Positions 7,734 to 10,443 of a DNA stretch of 10,443 nucleotides are shown here, in pieces. How positions within the stretch are numbered: the first letter of the stretch is position 1; each line of letters opens with the position of its first letter. This DNA is from a virus. Taxonomy: Duplodnaviria > Heunggongvirae > Uroviricota > Caudoviricetes. Both the position numbers and the translations under genes were made by a program. The notes under the pieces were generated by a model, which saw nothing but the letters and a program-made list of their open reading frames with translations, did not search any database and was not told where the DNA came from. The stretch covers positions 1 to 10,443 of IMG/VR virus record IMGVR_UViG_2529292922_000021; one strand, 5' to 3'.

Positions 7734-8842
7734 ATGACCGACACCACCATGCAATTGCTCAGTCAGGGCACAGACCCCGTGAAAATGCCGGATTTTGATA
7801 TTCTTGCGGAGGGTAAAACGCTGTCAGGCGTGGCAGAGCGCCTGATGAGCCTGTCACTGACCGACAACCGGGGATTTGAGGCGGACCAGCTCACCATCAC
7901 GCTGGATGATGCGGATGGTCAGTTGCAGCTACCGCCACGGGGCGCGCGCCTGACGGTTCTCATTGGCTGGAAAGGAGAACCGCTGACAGAAAAAGGCACT
8001 TACATTGTTGATGAAATCGCTCACGAAGGACCGCCGGACAGGCTGACTGTTTCAGCCAGAAGCGCAGATTTTCGGGATGAATTTAACGTTAAACGTGAGG
8101 TGTCCTGGCATGATGTGACCCTTGAGCGTGTGGTATCCGCCATCGCTCATCGGTATGGTCTGAAACCACAAATCAGCGAAATGCTGATGGATATCGAAAT
8201 CGACCACGCCGACCAGACCGAAGAAAGCGACATGTCCTTCCTTACGCGCATGGCGGAAATGCTGGGCGCAATCACCACGGTAAAAAGCGGTAATCTGTTA
8301 TTCATCATGCCAGGCGGTGGCGTGAACGCACAGGGCCAGCCGTTGCCCTCGTTCGCCATCACGCGCAGCAGTGGCGATCGCCATCAGTTCCGCATTGCTG
8401 ACCGCGAAGCGTATACGGGGGTACGCGCTTACTGGCTTGATCTTAATTACGGGAAAAAGAAAAAGTCAGCGTGAAACGCCGCAAACCGCCAAAACCCAAA
8501 AAGGAGAAAAGCAGCAGCCGTGAAGGTGATTATATGGAAGGCGCAGAAGGCAATGTGTTTGTGTTACGCAAGACTTATCAGAACGAGCAGGCAGCAAGAC
8601 GCGCAGCGGCGGCAAAGTGGCAGCAGCTACAACGCGGAGCCGCAGCGTTCTCCATCACACTGGCACGTGGACGCGCAGAACTCTACCCCGAAATGCATGG
8701 CACGGTAACAGGATTTAAAAGCGAAATTGATAATCAGGACTGGATTATTGCAAAAGCCGAGCACACCATTGATAACAGTGGCTTTACCACGCAGCTTGAG
8801 CTTGAAGCCAAAATCCCGGAATGGATAGCAGAAACAGAGTAA
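7734..8842 (+). pseudogene. D: P2 gpD-like tail protein (late control gene D), split by a frameshift in a lysine-codon A-tract
   Basis: ATG at 7734 with RBS GGGAGGG (7722-7728). The N-terminal part (to the TGA at 8472-8474) contains LSLTDNRGFEADQLTITLDDADG, VSARSADFRDEFNVKREVSWHDVTLERVVSAIAHR and FAITRSSGDRHQFRIADREAYTGV, resembling P2 gpD as recalled. The C-terminal part continues in another frame (8471-8842: REGDYMEGAEGNVFVL..FSITLARGRAELY..DNSGFTTQLELEA). The switch lies within GGGAAAAAGAAAAAG (8451-8465). Confidence 0.8.
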
Positions 8843-9036: not shown

Positions 9037-9702
9037 ATGAATATGCAAATTTTTATCGCACCAGCAGCCACAGTTGCTGCAGTCTGCCTTGCTGCATATT
9101 TTGCTTTACGAAATGAACGTAAAAAGAAAGCACTTGAGATTAGAACAACTCAACTAGATCGAATATCAGAGCTAGTAAACCGAGCATCTACCAATTTGAT
9201 GCAATATACAGGTACTCTTGCCTCTATACTGGAAGCGCACGCCAAAGATAATTATCTACCGAACAAAAAATTTGACATTAATGTAATTAGCAAATGGAAA
9301 GATTGCCTCGATGAGAGTGAGGTCTGGGCGATTGATAGACAGCAACTAAGAACATGTCAGCACAGTCTGGAGTTTCATCGTGAAAAAGAATGGGCTGAAT
9401 GGAAAAAAATAATTCCACCATTACTTGATAAAATTGACCAATTTTTTCTCATATCTAAGCCAGGGCAACCTGTTACGTTTATAAATGGCCAAAACAAAAC
9501 AGCTGATGAACTACTTGTTTTCTCAAGATATTTGAGAAAACAAACAGCAGAAATTGAATCAGTACGTCAGCTGTTACTTTCTCAAATGAGAGAGGAATTC
9601 ATCGAGTTAACTAGCTTTGAACCTGTCACAATGTTTAGCTTATTTAAATCAATAAAGAAAAATGTCATGCAATTTTTCTGTATCAGTGCTCTTAAAAATT
9701 GA
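9037..9702 (+). CDS. Hypothetical membrane-anchored protein of unknown function; low-GC cargo gene between D and ogr
   Basis: 221-aa ORF with RBS AAAGGA about 8 nt upstream. GC content is visibly far below the flanking phage genes. N-terminal hydrophobic helix IFIAPAATVAAVCLAAYFAL is followed by a charged, probably helical segment. No family recognised. Own AT-rich upstream region and a strong downstream terminator. Confidence 0.7.
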   Translation: MNMQIFIAPAATVAAVCLAAYFALRNERKKKALEIRTTQLDRISELVNRASTNLMQYTGTLASILEAHAKDNYLPNKKFDINVISKWKDCLDESEVWAIDRQQLRTCQHSLEFHREKEWAEWKKIIPPLLDKIDQFFLISKPGQPVTFINGQNKTADELLVFSRYLRKQTAEIESVRQLLLSQMREEFIELTSFEPVTMFSLFKSIKKNVMQFFCISALKN

Positions 9703-9717: not shown

Positions 9718-9747
9718 AACCCCAGTGTTAAACTGGGGTTATTCTTG
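9718..9747 (+). terminator. Rho-independent terminator of the cargo gene
   Basis: Perfect 9-bp stem AACCCCAGT (9718-9726) / ACTGGGGTT (9732-9740) with a 5-nt loop GTTAA, followed by ATTCTTG. Confidence 0.6.
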
Positions 9748-9851
9748 CTAAGAGACCTTTCTACGGCATCAGTAAACAAAACGAACTATCAGTTGGAGTC
9801 TGAGCAAGTTCAGCCTAAACTAGCGACAGCACTACGTTAAGGGAGGTCGCT

Positions 9852-10112
9852 ATGTTCCGTTGTCCGCTTTGTGGCGCATCTGCCCGTATCCGCACCAGTC
9901 GTCCGGAAAATGATTCAAACACCGTGCGGCAAAAGTATTACCAGTGTAACAACCTGGAATGCGGCGTATGCTTCTCAACACTGGAAGCTTTCCATAAATT
10001 CACATCGAAACACGCCTCCGGCATCCACTCTTCAGAAGATATCCCGTGGCATGAGCTGCCAGCTTCACACAGGGGAAACAATCAGATGAGCTTGCCTTTA
10101 CCTCAGAATTAA
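9852..10112 (+). CDS. ogr: Ogr/Delta-family zinc-finger late transcription activator
   Basis: 86-aa ORF with RBS GGGAGG (9841-9846). N-terminus MFRCPLCG..(x24)..CNNLEC gives the Cys4 C-x2-C-x24-C-x4-C arrangement; overall resemblance to P2 Ogr as recalled. Sits downstream of D, as in P2. Confidence 0.85.
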   Translation: MFRCPLCGASARIRTSRPENDSNTVRQKYYQCNNLECGVCFSTLEAFHKFTSKHASGIHSSEDIPWHELPASHRGNNQMSLPLPQN

Positions 10113-10121
10113 CAGGCAGAA

Positions 10122-10150
10122 TTGCCGGAGTAACAAAAAAGCGATAGATT
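10122..10150 (+). promoter_or_regulatory. Putative sigma70 promoter for the mok/hok transcript (TTGCCG, 17-nt spacer, TAGATT)
   Basis: -35-like TTGCCG (10122-10127), 17-nt spacer, -10-like TAGATT (10145-10150), placed about 20 nt upstream of the mok-like start codon. Motif match only. Confidence 0.25.
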
Positions 10151-10172
10151 ACGCGCGGGTGCCTTTCGGCTG

Positions 10173-10385
10173 ATGGTCGGAGGGAATACCCGAAGGCCAG
10201 ATGTGGAAAGGCCCCGGAAAACATCTCTGTTTAACCGAGGCCCTAACCGCATTACCTTGACAAGTGAAAGGTTAGCGCCTCTCCGGAAAAGGAGCAAGTG
10301 CTATGTCGCAAAAATCGCTTACGGCCATCACGTTCTGCGTGACGGCAATCCTCATCATCTGGATGTTGCACGGTTCGCTGTGTGA
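10173..10385 (+). CDS. mok: mok-like overlapping leader ORF (modulation of killing) of a hok-family type I toxin locus
   Basis: 70-aa ORF that starts upstream of the hok-like gene, overlaps most of it in a different frame and ends inside it. This is the arrangement of mok relative to hok in hok/sok loci; the protein sequence itself is not diagnostic. Confidence 0.3.
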   Translation: MVGGNTRRPDVERPRKTSLFNRGPNRITLTSERLAPLRKRSKCYVAKIAYGHHVLRDGNPHHLDVARFAV

Positions 10386-10443
10386 AATACGGATGAGCTT
10401 CTGGGGAGCGGAGTTTGCGGCGTTCTTACAGTGTAAGCAGTAA
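10303..10443 (+). CDS. hok: Hok/Gef-family type I toxin (small membrane-depolarising peptide), hokA-like
   Basis: 46-aa ORF missing from the ORF track (below its size cutoff). MSQKSLTAITFCVTAILIIWMLHGSLCEIRMSFWGAEFAAFLQCKQ has an N-terminal TM helix followed by the Hok signature SLCEIR and an AAFL..CK tail, resembling E. coli HokA as recalled. SD GGAG (10291-10294) lies in a potential CUCC/GGAG hairpin. Confidence 0.8.
   Translation: MSQKSLTAITFCVTAILIIWMLHGSLCEIRMSFWGAEFAAFLQCKQ

Follow-up and report, generated by a model that had tools for sequence, protein, structure and literature searches.

A probable hok/sok-type toxin-antitoxin module between ogr and the attachment site of P88-like prophages of Escherichia coli

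The hok gene and its place in the prophage

The DNA analysed here, a stretch of 10,443 nt to which we refer as the window, corresponds to the right arm of a P88-like (Xuanwuvirus) prophage of the P2 family (Peduoviridae) that in strain TUM9757 lies between btuC and ihfA. The last gene of the window is a 46-aa ORF whose stop codon coincides with the end of the stretch, and the gene upstream of it (9852-10112) encodes an Ogr/Delta zinc-finger protein. This arrangement agrees with an earlier sequence-only reading of the window, in which a hok gene adjoined ogr at the right end of a prophage; the prophage is now placed in the P2 family and hok is provided with a predicted promoter of its own. The features of the locus are as follows.

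10122-10150, plus strand: hok promoter, read from the sequence, with -35 TTGCCG (10122-10127), a 17-nt spacer and -10 TAGATT (10145-10150)
10157-10171, plus strand: predicted 5′ end of the hok mRNA and tac (GGGUGCCUUUCGGCU); position 1 of the Rfam model RF01794 aligns at 10157
10157-10191, plus strand: predicted metastable 5′ hairpin, in which tac of the nascent transcript is paired to the segment just downstream
10173-10385, plus strand: 70-aa out-of-frame ORF, taken for mok in the earlier reading and probably not a gene
10201-10261, minus strand: predicted Sok-like antisense RNA gene, ~61 nt with its 5′ end at ~10261, placed by homology
10206-10215, plus strand: ucb-like box (GAAAGGCCCC), whose partner is GAGGCC in the closed form and tac in the open form
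10237-10281, plus strand: Sok-target hairpin of the open conformation, GAGGC:GCCUC and CUAACC:GGUUAG, with the YUNR loop motif CUUG at 10256-10259
10269-10297, minus strand: predicted sok promoter, with -35 TTGCTC (10297-10292), a 17-nt spacer and -10 TAACCT (10274-10269)
10273-10303, plus strand: hairpin of the closed conformation that sequesters the Shine-Dalgarno (SD) sequence and the AUG, UAGCGC:GUGCUA and CUCC:GGAG
10303-10443, plus strand: hok coding sequence, 46 aa, MSQKSLTAITFCVTAILIIWMLHGSLCEIRMSFWGAEFAAFLQCKQ; SD GGAG at 10291-10294; the window ends on the stop codon
L001 6706-6721, plus strand (63-78 nt past base 10443, outside the window): fbi, which pairs with tac in the full-length fold

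The 46-aa ORF matched the Pfam family PF01848 (HOK_GEF) through residues 7-44 with a score of 29.9 bits (E 4.1e-7; gathering cutoff, 22 bits) and the phage protein family PHROG 251 ('MokW-like host killing') with 80.6 bits (E 1.3e-22). Residues C12, T14, L26, C27, E28 and E37 correspond, with the same spacing, to positions C16, T18, L30, C31, E32 and E41 of the Hok family logo as it appears in the text of a recent catalogue (bioRxiv 10.1101/2025.08.07.668861). The N-terminus is 4 residues shorter than that of the logo and residues 7-22 are hydrophobic. When eight sequences were aligned (alignment A2), C12, T14, C27, E28 and E37 proved invariant, and position 26 was occupied by L in five of the sequences and by P in three island copies. 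Among the NCBIfam models, HokA scored best (34 bits) and Hok reached 21.6 bits; both matches are weak and far under the respective equivalog cutoffs (89 and 73 bits), which indicates a divergent branch of the family. The Hok signature perceived in the sequence-only reading is thus supported by the profile matches and the conserved residues, and we regard the ORF, on these sequence comparisons, as a genuine Hok/Gef toxin gene. RefSeq lists it as 'Hok/Gef family protein' (WP_000078916.1).

The peptide is identical to 72_1621, listed in Table S2 of the same 2025-26 Hok catalogue (Escalera-Maurer et al., bioRxiv 10.1101/2025.08.07.668861), where it belongs to the high-abundance cluster 72 and was cloned under an arabinose promoter; the coding sequence tested there and that of the window are one synonymous base apart. 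According to the text of that preprint, 42 of 45 Hok homologues were toxic on expression and the three non-toxic ones were sequences other than 72_1621. A peptide identical to the window Hok is therefore reported, by that text, to be toxic to E. coli, and the toxicity test by inducible expression that the earlier reading had suggested has in effect been done.

The earlier reading had also asked whether the locus lies inside or outside the prophage, a question to be settled by the att core repeat, and had named a conserved chromosomal hok position unrelated to the prophage as the finding that would speak against its proposal. In TUM9757, a 25-nt direct repeat, AAAGAAAAAAGGCCGCAGAGCGGCC, which overlaps the ihfA terminator, brackets the prophage, its two copies being separated by 32,870 bp. 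The hok stop codon lies 262 nt inward of the right-hand copy, the attR core, so that the locus is phage cargo and not a chromosomal hok site; the packaged genome of P88 carries it too. Five complete E. coli chromosomes match bases 9800-10443 without a single difference, and packaged Xuanwuvirus genomes match the ogr-hok stretch at 95-97% identity, with values of 96-97% for P88, PhiR44_2 and Chuche. About a fifth of the complete E. coli genomes, 1158 of 5426, contain 80% or more of the ogr-hok stretch. Related prophages were found inserted at serS. The matching TUM9757 prophage has a frameshifted replication gene, and gpD is split within the window.

The distribution of the whole unit of ~440 nt is wider, with DNA homologues (74-100% identity) in 1756 of the 5426 complete E. 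coli genomes, often in several copies. Four contexts were distinguished: downstream of ogr in prophages of the P2-like type; behind lom or J in lambdoid and Stx phages; beside an L31 paralogue in an O157 island; and in E. albertii and Salmonella. The hok locus is thus a mobile cassette without a fixed chromosomal site. The Stx2 phage Sp5 also carries an unannotated copy of this Hok subfamily, downstream of lom. A GTDB scan with the eight-sequence alignment as query returned six loci, three of them in a Planococcaceae MAG (partly N-masked), in Vagococcus and in Xanthomonas pisi; since these three look like contamination, we keep the taxonomic range to Escherichia and Salmonella.

Predicted promoters, antisense RNA and alternative folds

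A plausible promoter upstream of hok had already been pointed out in the sequence-only reading, and the element TTGCCG-17-TAGATT, which begins 10 nt past the ogr stop codon, is conserved: its columns ATTGCC and TA.ATTA are kept in 10 homologues from four genomic contexts. The element matches 8 of the 12 consensus positions, which explains why it was missed by the consensus promoter scan. The sok promoter, likewise a poor match to the consensus, escaped that scan as well, and both promoters were placed by homology. We propose that the hok promoter is weak and constitutive. A terminator between ogr and hok was looked for in the terminator/promoter scan and none was found. The hok terminator is located at L001 6731-6758, outside the window, and together with a 5′ end at ~10157 this predicts an mRNA of ~405 nt. 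The fbi element and the terminator span 63-114 nt past the window end, in keeping with the earlier expectation that the 3′ fold-back element might lie beyond the window.

In the alignment, tac is homologous to the 5′ ends GGGTGCTTGAGG / GGCGCTTGAGG of hokW, hokC and R1. The full-length RNA folded with a free energy of -177.8 kcal/mol (z -8.1), and both the minimum-energy and the centroid folds were closed by 15 bp between tac and fbi (mRNA positions 1-15 with 349-364). When this closed structure, which was derived from one member of the alignment, was mapped onto the alignment of 15 homologues, 88.3% of the cells were paired, compared with 38-46% when the partners were slid, and 25 pairs showed changes on both sides. 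The tac-fbi helix by itself was 85.9% paired in the 15 homologues. The sequence opposite tac is a different one in the copies from lambdoid phages, the O157 island and S. diarizonae, and it stays complementary to tac. Within the closed fold, the hairpin at 10273-10303 buries the hok SD and the A of the AUG, and the probability that the SD GGAG is unpaired in the full-length minimum-energy fold was 0.00. The 11 pairs of this hairpin are 96.4% paired in the 15 homologues, with changes from G-C to G-U only, which substantiates the hairpin that had been suspected around the hok SD. In RNAs truncated to positions 1-160, 1-330 or 1-340, the minimum-energy structure was the metastable 5′ hairpin, an element that has been described for R1 hok (PMC9841398).

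With regard to the antisense RNA, it had been supposed that Sok may extend beyond the window. This does not seem to be the case, because the annotated sokB and sokC genes of E. coli K-12 project onto columns 10201-10261 (alignment A4) and thereby place the Sok gene on the minus strand of the leader region. The antisense strand folds into a 5′ tail and a long hairpin followed by UUU (-31.4 kcal/mol, z -4.0). The -35 element of the predicted sok promoter overlaps the hok SD region, and the promoter bases AGGTTAGCGCCTC and CAAG are invariant in 15 homologues. The promoter has the geometry of that of R1 (TTGCGC-17-TATCCT) and occupies the same homologous position as the promoters of R1, sokB, sokC and sokW. 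Its -10 element, TAACCT, is shared with sokW, where a TAGGTTAG to CCGGCTCG change introduced with primers YO-421/422 abolished it (PMC8621323). The alignment to the K-12 and plasmid hok loci recommended in the earlier reading has thus placed both the predicted sok promoter and tac. Judging from these alignments, the predicted Sok gene and its promoter are within the window, and only fbi and the terminator are outside.

The Rfam model RF01794 ('sok') matched the plus strand over its full length (model positions 1-157) with 48.4 bits (E 1e-9), a score under the gathering threshold of 59 bits; relatives of the locus scored 33-50 bits and canonical loci 87-118 bits. That a 'sok' match on the plus strand might be a strand error was considered and rejected, as the controls hokB, hokC, hokW and R1 behave alike. 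Since in these four loci the model matches the hok-sense leader, the match marks the leader and not Sok.

A second, open fold was predicted for an RNA of positions 1-322. It consists of a stem between tac and ucb and of the Sok-target hairpin, and is 90% paired in the family. Taken separately, the tac:ucb stem is 98% and the target hairpin 97.6% paired; both are mostly invariant, and every change in the target hairpin is wobble-compatible. The GAGGC segment of this hairpin occupies the position of the mok SD in canonical loci, and the YUNR motif is present at the same loop position in 11 of 11 homologues checked. The 5′ strand GGUUAGCGCCUCUCC is common to the target hairpin and to the SD/AUG hairpin, so the two are mutually exclusive. 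Modelled accessibility of the SD, which can be taken as suggestive only, was 0.00 in the full-length RNA, ~0.10 in the truncated RNA and 0.00 with the Sok-bound region blocked, a situation in which the SD/AUG hairpin re-forms. Given that accessibility rises merely from 0.00 to ~0.10 in the model, the relay between the two hairpins discussed below is something that we infer and not a result of the folding.

Could the locus nevertheless be a decaying, non-functional hok relic, comparable to several K-12 chromosomal hok loci and carried passively by the prophage? The RF01794 score of the leader under the threshold, the NCBIfam scores far under the HokA and Hok cutoffs and the absence of mok (see below) would fit such a relic, as would the damaged replication gene of the TUM9757 prophage and the split gpD. 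Against it, the hok ORF is intact in all 95 loci examined and synonymous changes dominate, for example with 13 synonymous and two non-synonymous differences in L007. The dN/dS proxy of hok was 0.04-0.58 against homologues chosen without regard to peptide identity; it was drawn solely from loci found by DNA search, and the dN of 0 of the IMG/VR loci was ignored, because that sample consists of the best 80 loci, all encoding the identical peptide, and is informative for leader variation and otherwise biased. Moreover, the promoter, tac, ucb, both hairpins, the complementarity to fbi and the sok promoter are kept in P2-like, lambdoid and island contexts alike, the locus occurs in viable phages, and the identical peptide is reported in the catalogue text to be toxic. 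We consequently give very little credence to the relic explanation. Overall, the locus is very probably a functional type I toxin-antitoxin module of the hok/sok type, carried as an accessory 'moron' between ogr and attP of P88-like temperate phages of the P2 family.

The leader and the question of mok

In R1, an essential mok ATG precedes hok by 58 nt (PMC9841398). The mok ATG was found at -57/-58, just after GAGG, in all four canonical controls (hokB, hokC, hokW and R1-type hok). When the locus was aligned with these canonical loci, the mok ATG column read TAC/ACC. GAGG is kept, at 10237-10240 in the window, and the retained motif serves as a structural element only.

The ORF that the sequence-only reading had assigned to mok, 70 aa long and out of frame with hok, is indeed present, but its position is a different one: its start codon precedes the hok ATG by 130 nt and follows the mRNA 5′ end by just 16 nt. 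No SD was found for the start at 10173, and the ORF had no Pfam or PHROG match. The ATG lies within the tac and metastable stems and reads ACG in the O157 island copies.

Leader variation was analysed in 95 loci, which represent 48 distinct leader-plus-coding variants. An ORF that starts with ATG, GTG or TTG and reads, in any frame, into the hok start was absent in 20 of the 48 variants (29 loci), and several of the variants without a leader ORF encode the identical Hok peptide. When CTG, ATT, ATC and ATA were added as starts, there was still no leader ORF reading into hok in 7 of 15 sequences checked. Two further candidates were rejected. The leader ATG at +45 (10201) is invariant, but the ORFs that it opens vary in frame and end anywhere from -98 to +137 relative to hok. 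As for a mini-ORF in the target loop, GTG-AAA-GGT-TAG, its GTG is replaced by GTA or GTC in 4 of 15 sequences.

The leader type of the window does contain an ORF that reads into hok, with a TTG at -46 and the ATG at -130, so that mok-like coupling would be possible in this haplotype. Accordingly, the locus could be read as a canonical hok/mok/sok system in which the 70-aa ORF, or its internal TTG at 10257, corresponds to Mok, hok translation is coupled to it and Sok blocks mok. The 70-aa ORF is open and overlaps the hok start in the window, the window-type leader is the commonest in the IMG/VR sample (best 80 loci), and the TTG at -46 lies in the loop of the target hairpin, close to the canonical mok ATG position. 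This TTG, however, follows GAGG at a distance of 16 nt and is replaced by TTA or TCA in other variants; the ATG at 10173 has the shortcomings just described, in particular its closeness to the 5′ end and its burial in stems; and neither the variants that make the same Hok with no start reading into hok nor the inconstant ORFs of the +45 ATG are easily reconciled with coupling. We therefore judge the canonical arrangement improbable, and the 70-aa ORF is most simply a haplotype-specific accident. On the evidence of the leader alignments, the subfamily has no conserved leader ORF.

In the openly searchable literature we found no description of an otherwise intact hok locus without mok. The recent Hok survey, according to its text, analysed the coding sequence only and left out Mok, Sok and the mRNA structure as 'not trivial' (bioRxiv 10.1101/2025.08.07.668861). 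Cluster 72 was thus covered there, going by the same text, at the level of the coding sequence, and the regulatory anatomy and the position between ogr and attR have been worked out here.

Proposed control of Hok and role of the module

The closest experimental precedent is hokW-sokW of Sp5, a type I toxin-antitoxin pair that has been demonstrated experimentally and is, like the window locus, prophage-borne (PMC8621323). The two share the leader layout and, as mentioned above, the homologous position and -10 element of the sok promoter. HokW is a 51-aa protein (MKQQKAM...) of a HokD-like cluster, compared with the 46 aa of the window Hok; hokW is preceded by an in-frame ATG at -57, where mok starts in canonical loci, whereas the window locus has no such ATG; the hokW leader scores 113.5 bits on RF01794, versus 48.4 for the window; and hokW-sokW resides in a lambdoid phage whereas the window locus is in a P2-family prophage. 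With R1 hok/mok/sok (parB), the window locus has in common the Hok/Gef peptide, the tac-fbi closure, the metastable 5′ hairpin, the alternative pairings of ucb/dcb, a predicted cis-antisense Sok whose promoter overlaps the hok SD, the YUNR target loop and a 3′ terminator just after fbi. Unlike the window locus, R1 is plasmid-borne, has a mok ATG and encodes a toxin of 52 aa, and its leader is not, as that of the window is, too divergent for the Rfam threshold. The K-12 systems hokA-E/sokA-E belong to the same family, HokA being the best NCBIfam match and sokB and sokC mapping onto the antisense region of the window; the mok ATGs of hokB and hokC are at -58 and -57, respectively, whereas the window locus has none and is mobile in phages and islands.

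The family membership, the position in the prophage, the conservation of the elements and of both folds and the lack of a conserved leader ORF are established by the sequence comparisons, and the toxicity of the identical peptide is taken from the literature; for the transcript ends, processing, Sok expression, relay and biological role we infer the following scheme. A weak constitutive promoter would produce the ~405-nt mRNA from 10157. Pairing of the 5′ tac with the 3′ fbi would render this RNA inert, with the hok SD and AUG hidden in the 10273-10303 hairpin and GAGGCC held by the ucb box. Slow 3′ trimming would then strip the terminator and fbi. In the trimmed RNA, tac would pair with ucb, and GAGGCC/CUAACC would pair with GGUUAG/GCCUC to form the Sok-target hairpin, which takes over the 5′ strand of the SD hairpin and so would free the hok ribosome-binding site. 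The labile Sok of ~61 nt, transcribed from 10261 to 10201 on the opposite strand, would bind the target loop, leading to mRNA decay and re-formation of the SD hairpin. If Sok synthesis stopped, the 46-aa Hok would be made and damage the inner membrane. Such a stop could follow prophage loss, induction, or the shut-off of host transcription by an infecting phage.

Because there is no conserved mok leader ORF, hok translation would probably be controlled directly through the RNA relay and not by translational coupling. The cluster 72 branch, with its 46-aa toxins in P88-like and lambdoid prophages and O157 islands, may thus represent a natural hok/sok without mok, in which Sok binds ~45-100 nt upstream of the hok start and a three-way relay operates with GGUUAGCGCCUCUCC toggling between hairpins; on induction, read-through from ogr or late transcription might also shut off sok and time Hok production to lysis. 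We put this forward as a tentative proposal whose chances we rate slightly below even.

The role of the module in the phage could be mainly to aid host lysis after induction, instead of prophage addiction or phage exclusion. The precedent is again Sp5, where mitomycin C leads to depletion of sokW and to RecA-dependent production of HokW, and where loss of the locus cuts phage release by half (PMC8621323). In addition, with no terminator between ogr and hok, read-through from ogr or the late operon in lytic growth could, speculatively, run into the sok promoter and collide with sok transcription. R1 hok/sok, on the other hand, stabilises replicons as well and lowers the plating of T4 (cited in PMC8621323), and these roles are not mutually exclusive; that lysis is the principal role seems to us rather unlikely.

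The module as such is already known: its toxin gene is annotated in RefSeq and falls into a phage protein family, a published catalogue lists the identical peptide among those tested, and the enrichment of hok in prophages has been published. To this, the apparent absence of mok, as seen in the leader sequences, adds a modest twist. Prophage-boundary callers, and the window itself, cut the locus at the hok stop codon and so lose fbi and the terminator, both of which are needed to understand the module or to clone it safely. Since about a fifth of complete E. coli genomes carry the ogr-hok junction, any role of the module in retention, lysis timing or exclusion would be widespread. If control without mok holds true, it would show how a ribosome-binding site can be gated by an antisense RNA whose own target is far away.

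Transcription of the hok leader and the ogr-hok junction

Although the Rfam family RF01794 is named for the sok antitoxin, its matches in hokB, hokC, hokW and R1-type loci (the related loci L004, L005, L021 and L022) lie on the hok-sense strand and span the leader from the 5′ end of the mRNA up to the start codon of hok; the annotated sokB and sokC genes lie on the strand opposite to these matches. RF01794 matches denote the hok leader and not a Sok gene. The match found here was:

10157-10316, plus strand, RF01794 match, hok-sense leader

A search of positions 10113-10156 revealed no terminator from the ogr stop codon (10112) to the hok promoter and mRNA start, and the first plus-strand terminator after ogr was that of hok itself, located 88-115 nt beyond the end of the window. 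Since no terminator separates the two genes, ogr transcripts may read through the entire hok locus.

The hok stop codon is also the exact end of many IMG/VR prophage contigs, including the present one (10443), the related loci L027, L029 and L033 and about 45 others. When the boundary is set at the final coding sequence, the hok 3′-UTR, with its fold-back element (fbi) and terminator, is therefore lost, as are the roughly 260 nt up to attR, the right prophage end.

Accessory gene content and prophage integrity

Between tail gene D and ogr, the following features were identified:

9037-9702, plus strand, 221-aa ORF
9718-9740, terminator-like hairpin of the 221-aa ORF

The GC content of this ORF is 35-40%, compared to about 50-55% in the flanking DNA, and its product carries a hydrophobic segment at the N-terminus. 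Searches of Pfam, PHROG and PADLOC gave no significant match. In the serS-type relatives L010 and L014 the ORF is missing and D directly adjoins ogr. Besides hok, the 221-aa ORF appears to be a second accessory gene ('moron'), with no function assigned.

Two reading frames of tail gene D (about 7734-8839, plus strand) are matched by P88 gpD:

7734-8453, plus strand, P88 gpD residues 1-240, one frame
8525-8839, plus strand, P88 gpD residues 262-366, a different frame

Judged from this alignment, D appears to be frameshifted. In the closest chromosome, that of E. coli TUM9757, RefSeq annotates D only as a 266-aa fragment, and in the same prophage a replication endonuclease and a tail gene are both frameshifted. 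It is possible that the prophage is defective and has nevertheless retained hok.

Related hok copies in other genomes

Near-identical copies of the E. coli phage hok locus were present among the GTDB representative assemblies, under the labels Planococcaceae MAG, Vagococcus sp. and Xanthomonas pisi (L015, L016 and L019), and likely reflect contamination or mis-binning.

An unannotated copy of the 46-aa hok subfamily, about 83% identical, was located 3′ of lom in the Stx2 phage Sp5 (VT2-Sakai, AP000363.1, 44532-44840; compare the related locus L013, 1670-1810). Sp5 is the phage in which hokW-sokW was defined, and its published ΔhokW-sokW strain still retains the lom-side second locus, which could contribute to the partial phenotypes of that strain.
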